This document shows, one piece after another, positions 35,647-62,778 of a DNA stretch of 64,000 bases. This DNA comes from Vermamoeba vermiformis (taxonomy: Eukaryota): NCBI GenBank assembly GCA_045837725.1, contig JBEWZL010000253.1:124001-188000 (forward strand), written 5' to 3'. The stretch's first letter is position 1. Each line of letters begins with the position of its first letter. The notes under the pieces were generated by a model. The model was not told the origin of the DNA and made no database searches. It was given only the letters and a program-made list of their open reading frames with translations. The position numbers and the translations under genes are program-made.

Positions 35647-36184
35647 TTGTGTTGATTGTGTGCGTTGAATATGCAATTGTCAGTTGACATTTTTATCGTG
35701 GTCAGAAGAAGCTTCGGTCTCAAAGTTCGAACTTGGTCTGGTTTTCAGGTATTCCTATAATCGCACCATTGCCGTTGTTCTCATGGATGTGGCAAGCTGC
35801 TGTACTAAACCAATAGCGGTATTGCTCTGCGTGCTACTTAAAGGGCTCAAATAGGGAGTCCAAAGAGTTCGGCGCGTCATCAATCTCACTTCGTTTGACA
35901 GCGATTGTCAGTGCTTCAACGAGAGTGCCACGACATTAGCAGCACACTTCAATAGCACTCCCAAAGTAACCGGTACAGAATAGTACTGTGTGACCACATC
36001 AGGTCTGCACTGTGCCGTATCAGTGCTAGCACCACACCCGTGCAATGTTGCAGTCCCTCGCTGCAGTGTTGAATGTCGACTAGGTGCTGGTGTGGATGAG
36101 CACCACTGTCACTGCATCCAGTCACACCCGCTCTCAAGTGCACTATCTCTGGTACTATTGTAGCCTTAACCCGGGTCGTTTATT

Positions 36185-36592
36185 CTAAGATTTGAGTGCA
36201 AAGCTGACGCCACAGCCGCAGCTCTTGGACGCATTGGGATTGCTCACCACGGCAAAACAATTGCGCGCCAATTCGTCAATGTAGTCGATGGTGGCACCTT
36301 GCAGCAGGGGCAGCGAGATGTCGTCGACTAGCACTTGAGCACCGTCCTTCTCGAACACGACGTCGTCTGCGCGAGGGGGCTGGTCTTCAATCAGAAATTT
36401 GACTTCGAAGCCGCTGCAGCCCCCCGAGTCCACTTGAATTCTGAGGCGGATCTGCTCGTTCTGTTCCTCCGCGCGCAACTCTTTCACTTTCTGCGCCGCT
36501 GCTGCTGTCACTGTCAACTCGCTCGCTGTGCCGATGCGCGTGCTGTACAGTGCGCGACACGTGCTGATCACGTGACTGGTACTTGGTGACAC
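36185..36592 (-). CDS. ISCA2: Mitochondrial A-type Fe-S carrier IscA2/Isa2 (no in-frame ATG)
   Basis: LRIQVDSGGCSGF, DDISLPLLQGATIDY and NPNASKSCGCGVSF. Confidence 0.9.
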   Translation of the reverse strand: MSPSTSHVISTCRALYSTRIGTASELTVTAAAAQKVKELRAEEQNEQIRLRIQVDSGGCSGFEVKFLIEDQPPRADDVVFEKDGAQVLVDDISLPLLQGATIDYIDELARNCFAVVSNPNASKSCGCGVSFALKS

Positions 36593-37483
36593 GTGTCACT
36601 CGTCGACTCGCGCGCCACAGTCCTGTCACGTGACTGCGCAGTGTGTGATGTGCGAGTGAGTGTGAGCACGTGACAGTGCTGTACTGGCGCACTTGATTGC
36701 CATTTAAGGCAAGTGAGTCGTTGCTGTCAGTGGCTGTTGAATCAGTCGTGGTCGCGCGCGCAGTGTCCATATTGATCTGCGCCGTATTGTGTGCAACAGC
36801 AGGTGTGTGGTGCTGTTCATCGTGCTGCAGTGCGCGCAATTGATCGCGGATCAGCGCGCTCTTCAACTGAATGTCTTGCTTGTCTGAGTAGTGGCGTCAG
36901 ATCACTGGGCTCCATATAATGCAATACTTGTTATTAATACGTACTTTTTAATGTACAGGTGTATTGGTGCAGTATTTTGTTCTCAATGAGGTCCCAGCTG
37001 AACCCAAGCGACCGTAACTCGATCGCGCGTTCATTGACTGTAGGAAAGAATTCTTTGGCTTTAACTGCGGTCAATATGTCAGCATTATTATTATTATTTG
37101 ATAATGTTGTATTTGGAACAACGGCGGAGGAATAAATGAGTTCAGATTCCGAAATAATAGAAAAAACATGCAATTAATAATATTCCATTTTCCATTAATT
37201 ACTCACGCATTTTATCTCGCTCCTCCTTCATTAATTTTCTCTTAAAATCGACTTGGAATTTAGTTTTGGGCTGTGCGCGCAGTTGCAGATCCTTTTTGAT
37301 CCGTTGTTCCTCAGCAATCTGTTCGTTGACTGGCAGTGGATTGTGCTTCTTCATCTTATCTTGCAGCTCTAGATCTGCCACCTTCTGCTTCACTTTCTTC
37401 TTCTGCGCTTGTTTGGCGCGATCCAGCAGAATCCGCTTGACGGTTCTGTTGAGCGTAGTGCCAGGCAGTCTAATAGGTATCAT
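36593..37483 (-). CDS. Basic, probably mitochondrial protein whose reading frame runs into IscA2
   Basis: ATG at 37483, MIPIRLPGTTLNRTVKRILL...; two canonical introns; the third exon has no stop before the IscA2 region. Confidence 0.6.
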
Positions 37484-37612
37484 ATGTACAATATATACTG
37501 TTGTTGTATTCGCTCGAGTAGTGGCAATAAAATAATAATGTTCTACCAAGTTCCAGATCCGGTTCATTTTTCTCAACTTAATAACGAGCACAATAGAGCT
37601 CAGTGCATAGAG

Positions 37613-38432
37613 ATGGCTGAAGAACTGCCAAAGCGCACCACTCGACGCTATGACCGAGTACCTGACTTTTTAGAGCCTGATTTTAATGCCAACTCTATCG
37701 ATGCCCATCTCAAGGCTAGAGATCAACGTATTCGTGAATATGCAGTAGCAACAGAGGACTTTAAAGCTCTTCAGAGACAATTGAGTAAGTTAATGTGATA
37801 ATCAACGAATTATAGAGCTAAATCTGATGCGCACTTTTATAATAATTATTTGTGGTGGTTATTATAATTATTCTCACATGCAATAATTTATTATCATCAT
37901 TTTATACAATTATTGTGCTATTACTCTTATTATTAATGAAATTACAAATGTAAAAATGAAATTATAAAATAATATGGCATCCACAACGCTAGTACCACCT
38001 CACAATCACGAACTACTTTAGAATAATATACGATTATCAATAATCTTCTGGCTCAATAATTATCATTATTCAAATACACCCATAAATATCTCAGCTTGCA
38101 TCATTAATTAATCCCCTCCTTGACCCTATTCGCGCTAACTATGCACCCCCTGACTGACCACACTACTAGGCGATTGTTATTTCAAAGCTGGACCCTACGA
38201 GCACGTCAAGGCCTGTCAGCCCCTCGCGCGTGAAATACTGCGTCGCATGAAGTGTTTCCGCTACAACTGCGATGGCGGCGTGTTCTCGCAGCCCTATCAG
38301 TACAAACAACACTCGTGGTACAATGCGGGCCAGGACAGCGACACGGCCTATCAGAGCAAGGCCAATGCGCACGACGACCACATTGCCGCTGAACTCGAAA
38401 AGAAAGCTGCGCACTCGCCCTCGCATCACTAG
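37613..38432 (+). CDS. NDUFB10: Complex I subunit NDUFB10 (PDSW)-like
   Basis: ARDQRIREYAVATEDFKALQRQLSDCYFKAGPYEHVKACQPLAREIL matches the RE...CY..G..H...C pattern. Confidence 0.75.
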
Positions 38433-38767
38433 CTTATATATATAGCATTCGTAATACTCGTGGTACTATAGTCTCGTTGTCATTCAACTCTGTGAATAAA
38501 AACTAAATTAGAAACATGCCAATGACACTGGATCCCGATCTGTCAGTACGCAACACGACTCGCACAATGATGAGTGCACGGCCGAGTGATACAAGTGGTG
38601 AGTTTAATAACAAGAGTGATACAAAAACAGCGAGATTATGACACAAAAAGGAGTTATTTTTAGCTCCGCCCTTTGCATTGCACTGCAGGTATTAGCCTCA
38701 ATCAATGCACGAGGGGTGAACTAACCATAATAATAATAATGATAATAATATATTATACTACGAGTGC

Positions 38768-41523
38768 TTATTCATCGTCCTCATCAGGGGCCTGATCGTA
38801 GCCTGTCTTTTCGCGCACTGTCTTGAAAAAGCTGGTGAATTTGGAGCCAGGACAGGGCTTCTTCAAGTACAATTCTTTCGGGGCCTGGTGGACAGTTAGT
38901 ACCTTGCCTAATATGGCAATCGTGTCAGCGTACCGTGTTGATGAGTACTTCTAAACCACCCTGCGCTTCAATCTTCTTCTGCCCCTTCGAGCTCTTCAAA
39001 TAGACGTAATAGCCCGAGCGGTCCTTCATAATGTTGATGCGCTGATGTGAGATCTTGCCGTCCTTGCCCACCTTGCTGATCGTGAACGGTGTCTTCTCGG
39101 GCTCTGTGAGGGACACGCGCACCAAGTACGTGCCGGGCTTTTGCGGCTCCAACAGTGTCTCTGAGCCCGGTCGTTCAATGTCGCCGTGGAACCACCTGTC
39201 ACTGCGTCAGTCACTGTTTGACACATGTCACAGCGCGGTACTTACGGGTTCTCGCAAACAGTTTGCATTGTGTCTAAAATGTTCTTCTTGGGACCTTTGA
39301 GCGGACCAAACCACTTGGTGAACAGACTGAAGCGCTCCAATGTGGCCACTTGTCGGTCATCGCGCTTGTTGCTCAGCGCACACAGCGCAGACAAGAGACG
39401 GAATTGCAGGTCTTTGGGACCAGGGGGCGGCAGTTTGAGTGTGGCGTACAGGGCCTTGGCGAATTTGGCAAAATCAACGGTGCTAAATAGAGCTCGATTA
39501 GTCACATCACGCATTGATAGTAGTGCATTAACGGCGTACTCTTTGCCCTTGAAGTTGTTGCTCCACAAGCCCTGTGCATCGAGATCACCATCGAGGGCGC
39601 ACTCGATCATGGCCTCGTCGAGGTAGTTGATGATTTGATCGAAGGACGGACGCACACTCGGATCTTCATTCCACGCAGCTGCAAGAGTGTTCAGATGAGT
39701 GTCTGCCACACTAGACGGCAGTAGTAGTATAGGACGTACCTTCCATCAGCTTTTTGATCGGGCCCGGCACATCAGCAGGGATGGGCGGACGTTCTTTCTT
39801 GTCGCACACCGCGCGCACAAAGTTGTTGTACGAGTCGTGTGTCTCGAATGGCTCTTTGCGCGTCATGACCTCCCACAACACAATGGCAAAGCTGTACACG
39901 TCTGACTTCTCGTTCAACGGCTTGCCGCGCAACACTTCAGGACTCATCCACAGGGGCTGCAAGATGACACGTGTCAATCAGTGGTCGTTGTAAGAAATGG
40001 AATTCCAAAACCATATTTCAATGCCTAAATTAGGCAAACAAATCCTTCGCAAGAATACACGAAGAAGCCGAAAAGTGTAATTCAGTGAAAATCACAACAA
40101 GTCACGTGCTTCCACGATATTGCGATCATCGCTATGCATAGTACTACTAAATAAGGAAATGACTTACAGTACCAGGGGCTACACCATTGTCTTGCAGGGA
40201 CTCTGAGCGCTTGACAGCACTGAGCCCAAAGTCACAGAGCTTGACAGTCCAGTTCTCATCGACCTGTCACGTGATTGTCAGTGCTCGTTCAGTGAACGGT
40301 GAACACGTGCGTAACAGCGAATCATCAATTATCCGCAAGATTGTTACAATTCACATGTAGATTACAGCGCACATATCGACTATAAGTGGTATATATAATG
40401 TATGGTGCCTTGTATTAATTAATTGCAATAAAAGAAATTGTTGACCAGCTTGAAACTGAGATCGAGCAACAAAAAACACATGGAAATACATACCAGCAAG
40501 TTAGTAGGCTTGAGATCGCGGTGAATAATTGGTGGTTTTGAGCAATGCAGCCAGTTCATGCCCTGCGCGATGTCTTTGGCCCACTTGATCTTCTGGATGA
40601 GTGAAATCTCAATGTTGCTGTGCAGGATGTCGAAAAGATTACCGCGCGGCATCAATTCAGTGACAATAGCGAGGTGAGAGGGCTCAGTGCACGCACCCAT
40701 AAAGAGCACAATATTCGGGTGACGCAAGTGACTGGCGAGGAACAAGAATTAGTGCATCTGTTTGGCGACCATAAAGATATTACAATCACGTGTTGATATT
40801 ATTATTAATGCATATGACGCGTGTGTTTGTATTAAGAAATGGAAATGTAGCGCATAACGGAGAATGAATCCACAATTTAAAACTTAAAAAATTAATTAAT
40901 TGATATTAACTACTTAGGATAATAGTTCCGCTACGTATATAATGCACGATTATTTGAGTTAAAAATAATACAAATAAACCAATGCCGATCTGTCGGTTAA
41001 AAAAAAAAAAAAAAAATTCTCTGCTAGTCGCTACGTACGTCATGATCTGCACTTCCTTGCGGAACTCTTCGAGCACATTCTGATCAAGGTCTTGCGCCAA
41101 CAACTTCTTGATGGCAACTTGTTTGCCGCGACAGAGTCCCTTGTACACGGTACCGAAGCAACCACTGCCCAACTTCTCTTGAAACACGAGCTCGTGCGAG
41201 CCGATTTCAGGTGCTTGTACTTCAGTAGCATCAGTGTCGCCTGAGAGCGTGGAGGTGAAGAGCTTCTTCTTTTTCTGGAAATTAACAAGGTGGATGCAGT
41301 CAGTAAGTGGTCTGACAATCAGCGCCAAATAGTTCAAATGGTATGCAGTCAATTTCAAATATTACTGCGTTATTATGGTGATATTAAATAATTTTAAGGC
41401 CGTTACTAGAAGTAAAATTTCAGATTTGATCAAAAATAATAAACTCGTCATTGCTTGCTGAACGGTTGATTATCGTACATCGTCAATTGTAAGACTGTCC
41501 AATGAATCAGCAATATTGGCCAT
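38768..41523 (-). CDS. shk: TKL kinase with C-terminal SH2 domain (Dictyostelium Shk-type)
   Basis: GSGCFG, HPNIVLFMG, HRDLKPTN, DFG, PLWMSPE, then SH2 WFHGDI...GTYLVRVS...FTISKV...HQRI. Confidence 0.88.
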
Positions 41524-46699: not shown

Positions 46700-47935
46700 A
46701 TGACAGAGTCTACAAGTAAGTTACGCCCAGCTGCGGATCAGAAACCTTACCAACAACATACCGAAAAAATTTTTAATTAAATAATTATTGCTGGTAAAGC
46801 ACTGGACAATTCCATGTGACAAAAAGAAATGCAATTAAAATTCAAAAAAATAATTTTACTTTCAGTCGAGGACGCAGAACTCGATGCATGGCTGCACCAA
46901 TTAGACGAGAGTGAGATGAGTGTCAAACTCGATGCTGCATCACGTGTCACAAGTGTCATTCATCGACTTGCACCACGCCATCACATGCGCGTACTGAGAG
47001 TAAGTGAGCTCTGAAACACCAGCACCGAGCTGACACGTGTCAAACAGGCACTCCTGCAATCACTGTCATTTCGTGACACGGCACTCATTGAGCACGTGGT
47101 GCCCGCAGTCAGTCACGTGACACGCGCACTGATAGCACAGCACGAGAAGAGTCAGGTCACCGTCGTGGCACCTGTCACGCGCGTCGTACTTGGTGCAAAG
47201 ATTGCTGAGCGACTGGAAGCGGCAAAGCAAGCGGCGTTCACTGAATACAACGAACCCGTGGACAGCACAGCAGCCCTGGTTGATGAGGTGCTCGACAAGC
47301 TTGTGTATGAGTTCAAATACATCACCAACAATGCACATTTGAGGGTAAGCCTGCGGCAATGACACCTGTCAAAGTGAGACCCCCAACAACTCATCCTTCG
47401 ACAGATTTACATGCGCCACGTGCCATCACTGCTGGAAAGCGCAGGACCCCACGTGATTAAACATTTGAAGGTACGTCGCACTCGTAGATGACACGTGTCA
47501 CTCACTGACCTCAGCCACTACTCAATCACGTGACATATCTGCTCACCATTGCGGATCAACAACTGACACGTGATCTGTTGCAGACACTGCGAGTCATTGT
47601 GCAGCAGTGTTGGATTAGGTAATTTTCACTGAACGGCCGGTTAATCTGAGCTCACTATTACCTCTTTTAGAATGGACTATCACGCACAGGAGATCTTTCA
47701 GTCACTGCTCGTCGTGTACGTTGATCACTGGGGCACGAGTGACGAGCACGCAGAGGTGACGCGCACGCAGATCACAGCGCTGTTGATCGCACTCAAGCAG
47801 TGTGTCTCCACCGCGCACTGGCAGGTAAGTGTCAAACACCGTCCTCGATGCAGCACTTACGTGTCAATTTAGGAACTGTTAGATACCTTGCAGACCTGCG
47901 ATGAGCTGCAAATATTGTACAGTCGTGTCAAATAA
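46700..47935 (+). CDS. TTI2: TTI2-like (TTT complex) helical protein
   Basis: IYMRHVPSLLESAGPHVIKHLKPLL...LQTLRVIVQQCWIRMDYHAQEIFQSLL resembles the Tti2 C-terminal region. Confidence 0.65.
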
Positions 47936-51875: not shown

Positions 51876-53652
51876 TTGTCTAATTAAGCAAAAAAGACAA
51901 AAGTTAAAACGTAAACCACAACATCCAAAAAAAAATAAAATTAGGAAGGTAGTGGTGTTCGCTAAGGGTTTAAAAAATTGGAAAAAGAATATCACGTTTG
52001 AGCGAGCAAAAAGACAAAAAATGTCAAAAAAGCGGTAATAAAAATAGAACAAAAGATTTCGTTGAGATTTCCATCTAAAAAAGGAAAGGTGAATTATAAC
52101 CAAGCATCGTTACAGAATTCTTGCTCCGAGCCAAGCCGAGGCCCGGTCAGCGAGTGATTCCATTGACGATGTTGGATCTGCAACTTTTTGTTACAGTTCG
52201 GTGGCAATCAATTCTATATCTCTATTTTTGGTATAAATCGGAACTTGACGCCGACTAGTGGATAATTATTGTTAAGACATCTGCTCCACTCTGTAAATAT
52301 ATCGCATCTAATCGGTGCATGTATGATTATGTAAATGTTTTGGTAGCATTACGTGCTCGTCAGATGTCGATCTGCTTGACACGCAAAAAATATCGCGAAT
52401 TCAGCAGTGCCAGGCACGAATGAATTGGATGTAAAATTAATGTTAAATATTACCTGGATGTTGCGGGTGTATTGGCACGACTCGTTGCTAAAACAAATAA
52501 ACTGGAGCTGTGTGGTTGTTCAACTCGGATGCAACAAGTGACTTTTTTAAAAACTGACTGAGCTGAGTTTTGCAGGTGTGTAGTATGCTATATTAGTATA
52601 ATTACAAATACTTGATCTGAGAAAAACCGGGCTAGTCCGTGCTCAACACAAAATCCTGTGACATCTGGTTGACATGTGAATCGCAAACAGTTTTGGCGTA
52701 ACTTTCGGAACATTGCCGCCAAGCAGCACTACCAACAGCTGCGTGTGATATGATACCACAGCTCATTGATTCACTATGTAATATGTTGATCAATTTCTCG
52801 CGACATGCGTGCCTCGATCTGAGTTTGCAGATGTCACGGTCATGACAAACACTAAACTCACCGGAACCAAGGACATCGTAGAGAACTGTCGAGGAGGTAC
52901 AATGCGCTGCTATTAATAGTCGTGTATTGATATGCAATGTTTTTGCTTTCGGTAACTTGTCGAGACCAAATTCGAAACATTTCGATTGCTCGGACAACAG
53001 TGTTACATCGCTTGTTGTCGAGGTACCGTAGCTAGCTTAAATTAGCTGTTATATTTAGAATAAATCAATAAATTTTAGTTTTTAGTTGTGTGGTTTAAAA
53101 TAAACCAAAGAAGAGATATTGCAATGTTTTGAGACAACTACTTCGCGAATCGGAATCGGCATGTTTTCATTGTAACGACGCGATTGTAATTGAGAAGGAT
53201 ATTCGCTGTCAGTTCGGCGGATAATTAAATGGTCGGTGATTCTGCGCTCCGAGATAAATTTTATAAATTCCGCTGCAATCACGTAACAACTTGTCTACTA
53301 AGCGTAATTAATAGCATGGCAATGATGAAACACATGGCTGTAATAGTATACGATTGTGTTGCTCGTCATCACTGTTCGCGAATCATATTGACACTTTCAA
53401 AAACTAATCAGGTGAAACAATCTTTGACACGTGTCATTGCGCAGCTATCTCCGAGGCCACCAATTATCTAGTATATTGAAATTATAATTTCACCGAATTG
53501 ATGCTGGTTTGATTGCACTGTTCCTATTTACGATTTTAGTTCTTATCCGCGAATTAAATTTACATCAATGTACAAGCATTGATCGCGTGAAATTTCCAGC
53601 GATCAAATCGAAAGATTGGTAGCGCACGTGATCGAGTCTCAAACACACAACA

Positions 53653-56192
53653 CTAGCCCAGTCCTTTGAGGGGTCGCGGACTGGTGATGGCGTGGCGACA
53701 GATGGGACAGAGTCGCTGATTGACAGGTCCCGCGCTGATCAGTTGTTGACACGTGAGACACAAAATGTGACCGCAGTCTATGCTCACCGCGCCTTTTTTG
53801 GTAAAGTCTTCGTAGCAGATCGGACACGTGAGTGACTGGGCCAGTGTGTCGCGTTCTCGTTGCGCGTCCTCCACGTGTCGCTGCATAGTTGCAATCTTTG
53901 CATTCAGCGCCTCGTAGTCGCGCTGTTTCTCCTCCAATCTCGCGCGGAGATTGCGCACTTCAGCGGTGTTTGTTTCGCGCTCCTGGCAACAGAGTTAGTG
54001 TCTATAAAAGGCAAGTGGTACACGTGCCTGTTTGATCGAGACGCTCGTGCGGTTCATGAACTGATCCTTAGAGTGCGCCAGTTGACAGCTGACACCGAAC
54101 AGCACTTGACACCAGACACGTGTCAACAGGGCACTCTCGAGCGGCAGTTGATTGGCGATGAATGTCAGCAAGTACGCTGCGAGTGCGTCAATGACAGGCG
54201 TCAGAATGAGGGTTGGGCGAGTGACACTTACAGAATGAACCAGAGTCCAGCAGTTGACATCTGAGGCCACGTGTCAACAGAGTGGTCAGTGACGCGACAC
54301 TCGATTTGACACGTGTCTGAAGCTCTGACTGGAAGTCACCGCTTGACACCGTCGTGTGATTGAATTCAGTGAAAAATTCAAACAAATTCATCGATGGTCG
54401 TGGTGCTCCGAGGGCGAGGTCCAGCGGAATAATTTTGCTCATTTGCACCGCTATTGGCTCTGGGAAATCGCTGGGAACGCGCAACTTGGTGCAAATAGAG
54501 TGCGGATGCAAATATTTAGCCAAAAATAGAAGGTGTGTGGCTAGCACGTGCTTTTGTGGCTCCAGTCCCTCCACGTGATTGATAATATCGCACGAGAGGT
54601 CAACCAAATCATTTCTAAATTAGGTGATTAGGAATTGGTACCAAACCAAATATCTCCGCGTACCTCGCAGTAAAGAACGGCAAAGTAACCAGCACCAACA
54701 TGACATAATAACCTGCAAATATAATGAGAGTTGTTCATGAACCATTGGCTAATATCGGGTACCTCGCGAACCCCACGTGACTGGTGGTGGAGCACGGTCG
54801 ATGACGCGTGTCAAGATCTGCAGCACAGTGTCCATCAACTCCAAGTCACTGCGCAGCGAGTTAGAAGTGCTAAAAATAGCGACAACACTTACTTATTTGG
54901 AAATTCAAAAGTGTCAATATTGCGCTGAAATTTCTTCCTAAAATAGCTCAGTGATTGCAGCACGTGTCGCACATTGTCCTCCAATGGCGCGTGGTCGACA
55001 GCAGTGGTGAGCAGTGCTAAATTTAGCACCTCCCAGTCACGTGATTTCGCTGCAAAGATCTGCTGACCAATCACGTGTACGAGTAGCGCAGTCCAGTCCA
55101 CGTGTTCGGTGTGCTGCACAATAAATAGTTGCAAACACTGGTAGGCCAGGGTCGTCACGTGCGCGGAATTCTCTTCGCCGTACTGATCGATCGTCTTGAT
55201 CAGTGTTTGCAATAATTTTACGAGCACGTGTGCCGGCATGGTGCTAAATTTGGGAAATACTTTCACGAAGAGCTGCAAGATGTAACTCAAGCACGTGGTG
55301 TCTGGTTCATGAAGCAGTATTTCACTGAACAGTGCCACCACAGTGCTGAAGTGAGGTTCATCGACCAGGGCAGCAGCAGCATCGACCAGGGCACGCACGT
55401 GATCGCGTGTCTGATTCATGTTGGTCATCTTGTACGCGATGAGTGCGTTCATGAACGGCTTCCATTCAGTGAAAGCACGTGATCTTCCCTTTGTCTTCAG
55501 TGAACACGTGCTGCAGTGTGGCCAGTGACTTGAGAGACACATCGACCTCGTGCTGCCATTACCTTATTAGGCACTGCAAGTGGTGCAGGTGACTTACCGT
55601 GTAGGTGGCCAGTACTAATTTGGAAATCACGTGCGCGAACAACTCGTGTTTGATGCGCGTGTCAATCGTCATGACTGGCAGTTCGGGCAGAAAGGCGAGG
55701 TGTTTGACTGACAGGTGTCAAAGAGTGAGTGGCACTGGCAGGCTATTTATAGCACTTACTGAACGAGATCAAAAATCCTTTGCTGAATCTGCTCGGCTCG
55801 GCACTCAGCACGCGACCGATCAGCTGCTGTGCCGTCAGGAGTGTACGGGGACTATAATTAGACGATAAATACCTGCAAACACTGCACCAGGAACTCGTTG
55901 TAGGTTGACGCTGAGGTCGCGTCGAGTGTCTTTTTGAGCTGCTTGATTGCTTCGAGGATCTCCTCTCTATGGTCACTAGTTAGCATCGTTACCGCATAGA
56001 TATAATTAATTAATAAGATTTTAGATAGCGCCGCTGATGTTAAGGTTAACAGAACCGAAGACGATTTAATTAATATTAAAATGGATCGGGACATTAATTG
56101 CGCTGGAATATTGTGTGCATCTAGCGAGACTTAATTACGTACTCGTTGTTAGAAGAGAGCTTCTTGAGTAATTTATTATGCGAGTTTCCCAT
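53653..56192 (-). CDS. Helical-repeat protein with coiled coil and C-terminal C3HC4 RING (E3 ligase-like)
   Basis: MGNSHNK start; helical exons; CPICYEDFTKKGAVSIDCGHILCLTC...CPICR. Confidence 0.75.
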
Positions 56193-56468: not shown

Positions 56469-59400
56469 TTACACATCTTCCAAGTGCAGTCGCGGTACAA
56501 TGTTCATTGCCTGCAGCTCTTGGAACAGCAGTTTGGCAGCATAGGGGATCTTGAGCTGCGAGAGTTCGGTGGACTTCTTGCAGTACTGACACCAGCCCTG
56601 ATAGCCCACGAAGCCGCACTGCTCGCACACGTACACCGTGAACTGATCGGACGAGTGCATCAGTCGCTCCATCAGCAGTGCCGAGGCTCCGTAGCCAATC
56701 AGACAGTCGCGCTCCATTTCTCCGAGCCGCAGACCTCCGTCACGTGATCGACCCTCCGTGGGCTGACGCGTCAACACCGCACGAGGACCACGTGATCTGG
56801 CGTGCATCTTGTCTGCCACCATGTGCTTGAGCTTCTGATAGAACACCGGTCCCTCAAAGATGTACGCATTCAACATCTCACCTGTAATGCCTAATTTGGT
56901 CATCCGTCAGTTGACTGATACAGCGCATCGCATCACGTGCTTGACGTACCTGAAGTGAGACAGTCTTTGCCGGAATAATTAAAACCCCGCTTGATCAGTT
57001 CGCGGCTCACAAAGTCTACGCGATCTCCGCCGAATGCCTAAAAATAGATCAGTGCCCCGTCACTCGCAGATAACCATATTTAGCGTACCGTGCCATCGCG
57101 GAACTCGCCCATGAGCACACCAGCCTTGCCCGCCAAGAATTCAATCAACTTGCCCACCGTCATGCGCGAGGGGAAGCCGTGCGGATTCATGATGAGATCT
57201 GGCACTATGCCACTGTCGCTGAACGGCATGTCCTCGTGCTGCACGATGATGCCGACCACACCCTTCTGACCGTGGCGCGATGAGAACTTGTCGCCGAGCT
57301 CAGGTCTCCTCGTCTCGCGGAACAACACCTTGATGAGCACCTGATCGTCCTCGCTGCCACTCAGCATCACCTTGTCCACGATCACGGGATTGAGGCCCTT
57401 GTAGGTCTGGTGGTCAATCTTGTAGTCCTCGTCCGACACCTCGCCGATCTGGGCCACGGGATCTGCCGTGTTGCGCGGTGTCTGCTTGTTGATGTACACG
57501 TCACCGGTCTTGAGTGACACGCCAGGCTGTGCCAGTCCATCGCTGTCCAGTCCGTGGTACTTGAGCTGTGCATTGCGCTCGTCAGCTGCAGGCGGTGAAA
57601 TGATGCGATCGTGCGAGCCATTGGCGTACTTCTTGATCAGCGTGCTCGCCTTCTTGAGCACCATGCACCGTCCAAAGCCGCGGTCAATCGAGGCCTTGTT
57701 GAGCACCACTGCGTCCTCAATGTCGTAGCCGCTGTAGGACATGACTGCCACGATGGCATTCTGCCCGCCAGGTATCTTGCGGAAGTTGATGAGATCGATG
57801 GTCTTGGTCTTGACCATGGGCTGTTGCGGATACACGAGCAAGTAGAGCAGCGTGTCGATGCGATTGAACTGATTGTAGCCAATGGCACCCATCGCCTGCT
57901 TGCCCATCGCGCACTGGTACGTGTTGCGCGGGGACTGGTTGTGGTGCGGATAGGGAATCAGTCCTGCCACCACACCTAATATGGTCAGCGGCTCAATCTC
58001 GAGGTGCGTGGTGCGCGGATGAATGTCGCGCTCGTACATGGCGATGTAGCAGTCGTTCTCTTCATTCACATCCACGTACTCGATCAGTCCTTCGTGCAGA
58101 AAGTCGTCGAAGGACTTGTAGCCCTCCACTAATTGCCTAATATGGTGCGACTTGACACGTGGCACACCGTTCTCGACGATGATGAGTGGTCGACACAATC
58201 TGCCACCATCTGAGGCAATGTAGATCATCTTGTCGCCCTCGTGCACGTAGATCGACACGAATTCCTAAAAATAGCCTCGTCAGATGCCATTGCCTAATAT
58301 AGATCGAGTGGCCACTCACCGAGATCTGACCGCTGCGTCGCATGAGTCTGAATGCGCGCACAAACTCTCTGGGCCGCGTGTGCACGCCGAGAATGACGCC
58401 GTTGAGATTGACGAGATAGGTGTACGCGCTGTGTATCTCCTCGCCCGACAGCAGCGTGATGTCCTCCACGCCCAGATTGAAGGCCAGGCGGTGAATGGTG
58501 CGCACGTCCATGTCCGTGGTCACGTGGGTGAGCAGCGCGAGGTTCTTGACGAGGCCGCAGCTCTCACCCTCAGGCGTGTCGCTCGGACACAACATGCCCC
58601 ACTGACTGGGCTGCAGACTGCGCGGACCACTCACTTTGCGCGTCTTTTCGAACTGACTCTGAATGCGCGTCATCATGCCCAGACACGCGATGAACGACAG
58701 ACGCGACAGGGCTGGCAGCGGTGCAATTAGTGCTGGGGGACGTGATTGCCTAATATGGAAATAACCTACCTTGCGTGATGCCAGCGCGGTCCATTTTAAA
58801 TCGTTTGATGCGCCAGTTGCCACTGCTGAGTGCGGAGACGAATCCAAAGTAGATCTGATCGGGTGTGATGTAGCGCACCACATCGAAGGGCTGTGCGCGG
58901 TTCTGCTTGCCGAGTGCATCGTCAGCGCGGCGCGAGATGTCCTTGGTGAAGCGCTTGAACAAGTCCTCGAACAACAAGCTCAGCAGCTGTCCGGCCAGTT
59001 CGAGTCGCTTGTTGCCGTAGTAGTCCTTGTCGGAGAGCGCGCTCTGATCGTTCACTGAATGCAACAACTTGCGCAGCATCATGCCGAGGTAGATGGCCTT
59101 CAAGCGGAAGTCGTAGTTCTTGCACGGCACGTGATTGAGAATGATCTGCGCGAGGATGTCACGTGCTTCATCCACTTTGGTCTTGCGGCGTCGTCTGGTG
59201 CCCGCTTTGATCTTGCCACCAATGTAGTCGAGGGCCTGCAGCTGCGTGTTGACTCCGAGCGCGGCGCACTTCTGCAGCGAGGGTGCGAGGTGATCAATGT
59301 AGTAGCTCTCACTGCCCACCAGCTGCACGGCCTCTTGATCGGTCTCCACGCCCATGCCCTTCAGCACCACCATGATCGGCAAGTCCTCGCCAAAGGTGTT

Positions 59401-60408
59401 GTGCTTGAGCAGCAGCTCGCCATTCTTGTAGATGACCGTCGTCTTGGACTTGCGCTCGTAGTTGGAACTCGTGACATTGGCGGAGTAGAGGCCCTTGTTG
59501 TCCACCTCCAAGATGATTCTATTTTTAGACAGCTGTTCTTGAATCAGAATCACCTTCTCCGTGCCGCGGACAATGAAGTAGCCCCCCGGATCGAGCGGAC
59601 ACTCGCGGTACTGCGCCAACTGCTCCTCGGTGGCCCCGTGCAGTATGCAGTGCTTGCTGCGCAACATGATGGGCAAGCGACCAATCATCACGTTGTTCTT
59701 CGGCTTGAGTTCGTTGCTCGCGACTTGTGTGTAGCGCAGATTGACGTAGATCGGGGCACTGTAGGTGAGGTCGCGTAGTCGACACTCTTGCGGGGTCACG
59801 TCGCGCGTAACAAAGTCCTCTTCAATGCAGGGCTTGCCAACCCAGATGTCGGTGAATCTGCAAGCAAAGCGAGTGAGTTCCAGCACTCGATTAAAGCAGG
59901 TATATATATGTACGCACTCTAAGAAGAAGTTAGGATCAGCCTCGCAGCGCACAATCTTGTTCGCTTCGACGATCTTCTTGAGCTCGTGGTCAATGAAGAA
60001 GTTGTACGAGTCAATGTGTTGCTTCACGAGTCCTTTCACTTTCAAGAACGCTGGTAATAACTTCCATTTGTCCTAGTAGCAACGTGTTAGTACCCAACGC
60101 GCGTGTTTTTGCGAAAATTAGCAGATTTGGGCTTGGCAGTTGTGCGAAGTCAAGAAAATGAAGGAAATAATTTATGTGCATTTATAACCACCATAATATA
60201 GCTCTTGGGATGATCCGAGTAATTTAAAATTATTTTTGAATTATTAAAAATTAATTCTTACCTCGATCGTTTTGATGGGTTCTGTTAATTTGTCAGCGTT
60301 GTATAATTCTTTTGCGAATTCATTGCTGAATCCTTCTTTAATATTTTCATGCATAAGTTCATCCTCGATTTGATCGCCAGTGATCTTCTCAGCTAACTTT
60401 AACCGCAT
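56469..60408 (-). CDS. RPC2: RNA polymerase III second-largest subunit
   Basis: [74 protein letters not shown]. Confidence 0.97.
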
Positions 60409-60652: not shown

Positions 60653-62778
60653 ATGCAGACTTACAAAACGAAGGTCAACAAGGTCAGTGCGCAGTATCAA
60701 GAGAACTACAAGCGCAATCAGGAGCTCGTGGCAGATCTGAACGCGCAGCTGGGCAAAGCACTGGAGCAAGGCAAGCCCGAGCACGTCAGACGTCACATTG
60801 AGGGCGGCAGATTGTTGGCTCGTGACCGCATTGAACTCTTGCTCGATCAGGTACAAGACAACATCCCACCGCTAATTACTTTAATATCGATGCAAATAAT
60901 GTGACTAACAATGCTAGTATAATTTCGAATATTTAAAATGTCTAAGGACAAATTTCTAACAACACGAAAAGGATTCGCCATTTTTAGAGTTGTGTCCACT
61001 TGCTGGATGGGGCAAAGACAATACACCATTGGGAGGTTCTGTTGTGTGCGGCATTGGTCTTGTTAGGTAAGTTAGTTCACCATAAATGAGGCTGTGTTGC
61101 TGGTACACAAAGGCAGATCGCAACCTTAAGTTGCCTTCAAGTAACTCATTTCAAACAGTGGTGTCGAATGTCTGATATCAGCCAATGTACCTACAATCAA
61201 CGGTGGCTCCGTCAATCGCACCACACTGAAGAAGTTCGGGCGCATCGATCAGATCATCACCGAGAACCGATTGCCCGCCATCTCCTTAGTCGAGACAGGT
61301 GGTGCAGATCTGCGCCAACAAGCCAAGGTGTTTCATGCGGGAGGTGCAGGGTTCCGCTCACTGACACGCCGTTCCAAGGACGGACTGCCCTCGATCAGCG
61401 TCGTGTTCGGCAGCAGCACTGCAGGCGGTGCGTACACTCCTGGCATGAGTGACTACGTGATCATGGTCAAGGTACACCTCCCGCACTCTGACATTGCATT
61501 TCCTGACTGACGCACCTCCACATCCAGAACCAAGCCAAAGTGTTCCTCGGTGGTCCACCCCTCGTGAAAGCAGCCACGGGTGAAGTGACTGACGCCGAGA
61601 CACTCGGTGGCGCAGAGATGCACAGTCGGGTCAGTGGTGTCTCGGACTACCTCGCTGAGGACGAACATCACGCGCTCTATTTGTGCCGGTAAGGGACTCC
61701 ACTAGTGACACTACCACGTGACACTACCACGTAACATTGGATGAGACTGACACGTGCTGGCAGACAGGTGGTGGCATCGCTCAACTGGCACAAGAAGACA
61801 CCGTTCCCTGGCGGACATCTCGTGCGCAAGATTGATGCGCCGCTCTACGACCCTGGTAAGTGGCATTCGCGCGGTGCTATTTATAGCTGCAGACTGACAC
61901 GTGTCAGATGAGTTGCTGGGCATTGTCTCGCCAGATGTGCGGTTGCCCTTCGAAGCGCGCGAAGTGATCGCACGGCTGGTGGATGGCTCGCGCTTCAACG
62001 AATTCAAGCCCAGCTACGGCACCACACTCGTCACGGCCTGGGCCGAGGTGCACGGCTTTCCGATCGGCATCATCGCTAACAACGGGGTAAGTGGCGGGTG
62101 TCGCGGTGGTGGTGCTATTTATAGCTGCAGACTGACACGCGTCACAGGTGATCTTCCCCGACACGGCGAACAAGGCCACGCAGTTCATCGAGATCTGCGA
62201 GCGCCGCGTGATTCCGCTGCTGTATCTGCACAACATCACGGGGTTCATGGTGGGCAAGAAGTACGAGCACGAGGGCATCATCAAGCACGGCAGCAAGATG
62301 ATCAACGCCGTCTCCAACTGCGAGCTGCCAGCGATCAGCATCATCATGGGGGCCTCGTACGGTGCAGGCAATTACGCCATGTGCGGCAGAGCTTACAACC
62401 CGCGCTTCTTGTTCACGTGGCCCAACTCCAAGGTCGCAGTCATGGGTACGTAGCTGCAGTCACGTGCTGCACACTGCACATTATTGACACGTGTTATTTG
62501 CAGGTTCGGATCAGCTGGCAGGTGTGATGGTGACCATTCAGCGCGATGCAGCGGAGAAGTCAGGCCGCAAGTTCAATGAAGAGGCTGCAGCACAGATGAG
62601 CAAGATGTTCAAAGACAAAGTGGACAGTGAGACCACAGCCTATTACTGCACGAGCAGAATGATCGATGACGGCATTGTTGATCCACGTCAGACACGTGAC
62701 ATCTTGGGTCTGTGCTTGTCGGTCATTTACACCAATGAGATCAAGCCGAGCGGCAGATATGGTCTGCATCGCATGTAG
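60653..62778 (+). CDS. Biotin-dependent acyl-CoA carboxylase beta (carboxyltransferase) subunit, MCCB family, AccD2/AtuC-like
   Basis: [70 protein letters not shown]. Confidence 0.9.

Follow-up and report, generated by a model that had tools for sequence, protein, structure and literature searches.

One gene on the minus strand of the window, by which we mean the whole 64,000-nucleotide stretch of DNA analysed here, is best read as encoding a composite mitochondrial precursor of 364 residues that would be cleaved after import. Judging from the sequence comparisons set out below, we put the probability of this reading at about 0.55. In this proposal one gene gives one 364-residue precursor that consists of a basic, helical protein, a variable spacer, a 65-residue presequence-like stretch and an A-type Fe-S carrier of the ErpA/ISA2 type. 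The whole precursor would enter the matrix, where the mitochondrial processing peptidase (MPP) would cleave it within this presequence-like stretch, either at the conserved R-x-Y|S-T motif or beyond it. IscA2 and the N-terminal protein would thereby come apart, in the manner of Arg5,6, Atp25 and Rsm22-Cox11. Taken on its own, the internal cleavage has roughly even odds.

The gene, all parts of which lie on the minus strand, starts at ATG 37483-37481 and is made up of three exons. Exon 1 (37207-37483) provides codons 1-92 plus one base and is followed by a GT..AG intron of 142 nt (37065-37206). Exon 2 (120 nt; 36945-37064), which is the best-conserved part of the N-terminal protein, is followed by a second GT..AG intron of 61 nt (36884-36944). 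Exon 3 (36185-36883) completes the N-terminal protein, goes on to encode the spacer, linker and IscA domain, and closes with a TAG stop codon at 36187-36185. At the residue level, the N-terminal protein corresponds to residues 1-155 (36816-37483, with both introns inside), the Ser/Thr/Asp-rich spacer to residues 156-188 (36717-36815), the linker to residues 189-253 (36521-36716) and the carrier domain to residues 254-364 (36188-36520).

In the window as assembled this reading frame is split in two. The first-pass annotation had reported that the IscA2 frame has a TGA directly upstream and lacks a usable ATG. This is indeed the case: the frame is open over 36185-36595 on the minus strand (136 amino acids), does not contain a single Met and is closed on its upstream side by a TGA at 36596-36598. 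The same annotation had described a three-exon gene that enters the IscA region without a stop, and it had quoted one peptide from each of the two frames. Both peptides were read correctly, and the frame of the upstream gene meets no stop at the start of IscA and ends only at 36387, after 299 codons. The offset between the two frames amounts to one base and is located at 36585/36586. Annotation of the window as assembled would give a truncated chimeric protein and no IscA2. Because IscA has no start codon of its own, ribosomes at this locus must first translate the N-terminal protein to make IscA2, the one exception being a start at Met171 in the spacer.

Twenty-four public runs were listed, 20 of them holding part of the stretch, and contigs from four runs of four different studies (X1, X2, X3 and X8) were compared with the window over 36000-38500. 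The four runs are labelled only as guessed RNA; we take their contigs to be spliced RNA because three GT..AG introns are skipped exactly. Intron 1 is skipped in the contigs of all four runs, where the joint 37064/37207 coincides with the donor border of exon 1. Intron 2 is skipped in three of the four (X1, X2 and X3; X8 has no cover there), and exon 2 is bounded by two RNA joints. The third intron, that of the neighbouring plus-strand gene (about 37783/37785-38169), is again skipped in all four runs. Within exon 3 the contigs are unbroken and show no joint over 36375-36883 (X1), 36432-36883 (X2), 36211-36708 (X8) and 36174-36465 (X3). X3 is uncovered over 36466-36725. Near the start of the gene, RNA coverage gives out 25-30 bases before ATG 37483 is reached, at 37453 in X1 as well as X2 and at 37458 in X3, and 37459-37483 is left uncovered. 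A TATATAT run is present at 37491-37497. Contigs cannot show where transcripts end, and a contig that bridges two parts of a gene is no proof of one RNA molecule.

The RNA contigs lack one base at position 36585, which is one of the two G residues at 36585-36586. It is missing in all three runs that cover the position (X1, X2 and X8, from three studies), and the contigs of these runs also share a T>C difference at 36580. No other indel is found between the window and the RNA contigs in the coding region. With base 36585 removed, a single open frame of 364 codons runs through the N-terminal protein, the linker and IscA. The window and the RNA contigs differ at 13 coding positions; 11 of these differences are silent in the fused frame, and in the IscA part all seven are silent. 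There is very little doubt that the N-terminal protein and IscA share one real fused frame.

The fusion has relatives. A search for longer proteins containing the IscA frame returned two proteins among 967 candidates, and one of them, P0001, consists of exon-3 sequence plus IscA in one frame. The cluster of P0001 has eight members, among them P0005 and 239-residue forms. P0005 (376 amino acids) covers all three exons plus IscA, and its exon junctions are identical to those of the window gene. Five proteins of 239 amino acids (P0001, P0006, P0008, P0009 and P0010) hold exon 3 and IscA in one frame; the record for P0006 gives a longest contig of 457,969 nt. P0007 (181 amino acids), also from this cluster, departs from IscA directly behind the first of the cluster cysteines and then follows a different frame of the downstream IscA sequence; on that one contig, part of the gene may have been deleted or spliced aberrantly.

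A scan of metagenomes added 21 loci. Three of these (L001-L003) match exon 3 plus IscA throughout, while the other 18 match the carrier domain only, at 35-49% identity. The DNA identity to the window is 75.7% over 1,633 bases for L001 and L002 and 80.1% over 692 bases for L003. When spliced at the exon borders of the window gene, L001 and L002 give 363-codon frames without a stop, and the alignment with L001, a related genomic contig, has a gap exactly at the extra base of the window. Intron 1 of L001 (aligned to window 37200-37210) appears to start with GC and not with GT, the frame across the junction being kept, and is probably a GC-AG intron. The fusion is present in three lineages, namely that of the window and the two related ones represented by P0005 and by L001/L002, in DNA as well as in RNA, and is out of frame only in the assembly of the window.

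It is practically certain that neither recoding nor an intron is needed to join the two halves. The first-pass annotation had offered an assembly indel, a cryptic intron or real recoding as ways of joining them. The indel is borne out by the absence of base 36585 from all three covering runs and from L001, whereas the cryptic intron and the recoding both fall away. The window as assembled does need some joining device, be it a cryptic intron, a spliced-in IscA2 start, RNA editing or programmed ribosomal frameshifting at a palindrome, and a 54-base GT..AG pair can be drawn by eye around 36577-36630. However, no covering contig has a joint anywhere within 36211-36883, the related genomic DNA has an open frame without any device, and CACGTG palindromes are common throughout the window. 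We consider a joining device extremely improbable. The 54-base intron drawn by eye is itself ruled out by the unbroken RNA contigs. The scenario that had been named as contradicting a tandem gene, an IscA2 start spliced in at ATGGCAATC near 36703, finds no joint at that place, and the letters concerned are internal codons of the restored frame.

The 14-base palindrome GTGACACGTGTCAC, at which the shift region had been said to begin, is present at 36586-36599. Its core, CACGTG, is one of five such sites in 36558-36672. In the window as a whole this hexamer occurs at 79 sites against 18.09 expected, a fourfold over-representation, and none of 100 shuffles reaches 79. With its core so widespread in the window, the palindrome is nothing particular to the spot of the frame shift and does not point to a specific role. 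Besides the five sites close to it, dense clusters are found at 47034-47572 (nine sites) and 53428-55633 (26 sites). A coding motif present in many copies, a regulatory site or a general sequence preference of this genome could each account for the excess.

The extra base itself is likely to be an assembly error and not a true allele; otherwise it would be a very recent lesion of the sequenced strain. The RNA comes from strains that differ by about 1% from the window, which leaves room for the base to be a true allele in the window's own strain. The copy would then be freshly broken, with 66 out-of-frame codons ending at 36387 and no IscA2 made from it. That the RNA contigs stem from other strains is also indicated by the 13 coding positions at which they differ from the window. 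In keeping with a real allele, a second difference (36580) lies five bases from the indel, and the remaining three indels that separate the window from the RNA fall in AT-rich untranslated regions and have the look of ordinary polymorphisms. Against this, the IscA frame of the window is fully intact, all seven of its differences being silent, so that any break must be very recent. Moreover, the base is absent from two related genomic lineages as well as from three RNA data sets, and IscA2-type carriers are required for mitochondrial 4Fe-4S proteins. A broken allele is on the unlikely side.

The pattern of conservation differs along this frame. Residues 1-20 of the window protein are identical to those of L001 despite several silent changes in the DNA, and ATG 37483 is therefore supported as the start codon. 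Selection on the N-terminal 155 residues is as strong as on IscA. In the comparison with L001, dN/dS is 0.10 for residues 1-155 (0.10 for exon 1 and 0.07 for exon 2) and 0.08 for the IscA part. The corresponding values are 0.41 for the spacer, in which 42% of the residues are identical, and 0.44 for the linker. Synonymous divergence between the window and L001 is about 0.5-1.0.

The C-terminal domain is clearly an A-type carrier. It matches PF01521 with an E value of 2.5e-17 and 63.5 bits against a cut-off of 26.3, over profile positions 2-109 of 110. Cys288, Cys354 and Cys356 are the cluster-binding cysteines, the first of them separated from the second by 65 residues (Cys-X65-Cys-Gly-Cys), and the spacing expected in A-type carriers is C-Xn-C-G-C. 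The best NCBIfam model is ErpA with 114.2 bits, followed by SufA (79.7) and IscA (71.3). The ErpA score lies 2.8 bits below the equivalog cut-off of 117, as expected for a eukaryotic sequence. IscA2 is a mitochondrial matrix protein. The name IscA2, given to the frame at first inspection, agrees with the ErpA/ISA2-type assignment from these profile scores, which are not a tree, and the label is reasonable because ErpA and yeast ISA2 are placed together in class ATC-I in the accessible part of PMC2682760. The domain resembles the ATC-I carriers (bacterial ErpA and mitochondrial ISA2/ISCA2) in its PF01521 match, its Cys-X65-Cys-Gly-Cys arrangement and its best model. It is unlike them in being preceded by about 250 residues where a short presequence is expected. 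In P0002, an ErpA-like protein of 284 amino acids with 51% identity over the domain, the N-terminus is likewise extended, by a basic stretch of about 170 residues that is unrelated to the one described here. Other lineages, too, may carry long extensions before the carrier domain.

The linker contains 65 residues without any Asp or Glu, among them eight Arg/Lys, five His and 21 Ser/Thr. By a crude measure, the amphipathic moment along the protein also peaks here, at 1.59. These proxies fit a putative internal presequence. The MPP motif is defined as R-x-[FYL]-[SA], in agreement with the literature on composite precursors. This pattern occurs once in the linker, at residues 198-202 (36689-36675), in all three lineages; L001 has one further match elsewhere. 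The junction had been described earlier as an Arg/Ser/Thr-rich, acid-free stretch with a motif of the R-x-Y-S style, and this description holds over the full acid-free run, with R-x-Y|S-T kept in each of the three lineages. In the linker DNA over 36552-36676, a 27-base unit occurs three times in direct orientation, with imperfect matches (100%, 74% and 63% identity, at spacings of 58 and 40 bases), which hints at growth of the linker by internal duplication.

It is rather unlikely, in our view, that the fused protein is imported and stays uncut, with the helical part as a lineage-specific extension of IscA2 and the presequence-like stretch as the relic of an old IscA2 presequence that now serves as a linker. 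Constraint on the linker is relaxed, as its dN/dS of 0.44 indicates, the N-terminal part has no stand-alone relative in the searches, and P0002 likewise carries a long unrelated extension before its ErpA-like domain; all three points are consistent with an uncut protein. Yet the linker is still acid-free over 65 positions after a synonymous divergence of about 0.5-1.0, and retention of R-x-Y|S-T in three of three lineages is unexpected for a mere linker. The cleaved precursor is the preferred reading.

Within the otherwise variable spacer, Met171 (36770-36768) is conserved in all three lineages. IscA2 might be made separately from this residue, on a shorter transcript that starts in exon 3 or in intron 2, and the fused frame would then be used in parallel or at a low level. 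The neighbours of Met171 are kept together with it in the three lineages, and the starts of transcripts are not visible in the contigs, both of which would suit such a separate product. In contrast, the 18 residues after Met171 include four Asp, unlike the start of a presequence, and an out-of-frame ATG is located upstream of Met171 in exon 3. Furthermore, none of the three lineages has a stop codon that closes the N-terminal part, so that every translation of the long RNA yields a fused product. Separate production of IscA2 from Met171 appears improbable, and the composite precursor is preferred over it.

The N-terminal protein (residues 1-155) is basic, with 36 Lys/Arg against 21 Asp/Glu, and is predicted to be helical. 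By crude composition measures, residues 1-20 are acid-free and contain four Arg/Lys (net charge +4) with a moderate moment of 0.85, and they look like a weak-to-moderate mitochondrial presequence. No family was found for the N-terminal part in Pfam at E values up to 10, either with single exons or with P0005; PF25520 was rejected as a 14-bit chance match. Searches of PDB sequences gave no match for exon 1, while the matches of P0005 are confined to the IscA domain, and the ESM Atlas gave no usable match for the N-terminal part. An HMM search of this protein had been suggested by the first-pass annotation. An exhaustive HMMER search with exon 1 yielded one match among 1,835,955,588 representatives, which belongs to close kin, and did not lead to a family. 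Word-based searches with the N-terminal part gave no match among 58 candidates in one set and two among 17 in another, both of them exon-1 fragments of close kin; relatives of exons 2-3 were searched for with the word-based tool only. Because no stand-alone relative was found in these searches, the N-terminal half could be a lineage-specific extension of IscA2.

AlphaFold2 was run on P0005 without an alignment and gave a mean pLDDT of 45.4, with only the helices of residues 10-160 reaching values of 70-85. The IscA part is unfolded in this model because no alignment was supplied. A Foldseek search of the N-terminal fold against the PDB gave no match at an E value of 0.001 or better. The best hit of VIA-align is a helical hairpin of the yeast mitoribosome (3j6b_R; Z score of 8.1, r.m.s.d. 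of 1.4 over 56 residues). This match was discounted because it is tied with unrelated rows at Z scores of 7.2-7.6 and itself falls short of the level that the tool regards as meaningful for helical models.

A two-exon gene (37613-38432, plus strand) is transcribed divergently from the fused gene, and 129 bases separate their start codons. The intron of this neighbour extends over about 37785-38169; in X2 and X8 the joint is placed two bases earlier and an AA stands between the two sides. The RNA contigs of this gene have a higher word depth than those of the fused gene. Its assignment as a complex I subunit was rejected, with no support from Pfam or PDB sequence searches and no family found. 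A Pfam sweep over the 144 open frames of at least 90 amino acids gives a eukaryotic gene set (56472-60072 on the minus strand, 61145-62775 on the plus strand and 38928-39206 on the minus strand), and the same sweep found an SH2 domain, Kelch-kinase genes, a Zn2Cys6 domain and an Fe-hydrogenase-like gene. In the genes for the second-largest RNA polymerase subunit and for a carboxyltransferase, adjoining Pfam matches are in different frames and separated by about 45-60 bases, which we read as short introns. The GC content of the window is 44.3%.

Only a handful of composite mitochondrial precursors are known. About seven are named in the accessible part of PMC8734313, where Arg5,6, Atp25, Rsm22-Cox11, Etp1 and rice RPS14 are described as carrying an internal region that resembles a presequence, together with an MPP motif placed exactly where the two modules meet; composite precursors cut by MPP are also treated in the accessible part of PMC5063612. 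We found no paper in the open-access literature searched on an A-type carrier inside a composite precursor. If cleavage is confirmed, the gene described here would add a composite precursor with an Fe-S carrier downstream and an orphan protein upstream, in a different kind of eukaryote, and it would offer a handle on the role of the orphan protein.

Compared with Arg5,6 and Atp25 of S. cerevisiae, Rsm22-Cox11 and Etp1 of S. pombe and rice RPS14, as they are described in the same part of PMC8734313, the window gene has the same plan: two modules share one frame, and the junction itself bears an Arg-based MPP motif and what looks, by crude measures, like an internal presequence. As in those precursors, the downstream matrix protein has no start codon of its own and the fusion is kept among related species. 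The gene is probably a new member of the Arg5,6/Atp25/Rsm22-Cox11 group, as far as its sequence features tell. It is unlike the known examples in that cleavage is putative here and that the upstream module has no known family or stand-alone relative. The host, judged by its gene content, is neither a fungus nor a plant, unlike the hosts of the known composite precursors. A broader proposal, which we make tentatively, is that a conserved tandem precursor exists outside fungi and plants, in which a lineage-restricted, strongly basic helical protein and IscA2 would be separated by MPP at a retained, internally repeated presequence; a new mitochondrial factor would then be supplied in a one-to-one ratio with the 4Fe-4S carrier. 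Unlike in the precursors named in the accessible part of PMC8734313, the downstream module is here an A-type Fe-S carrier.
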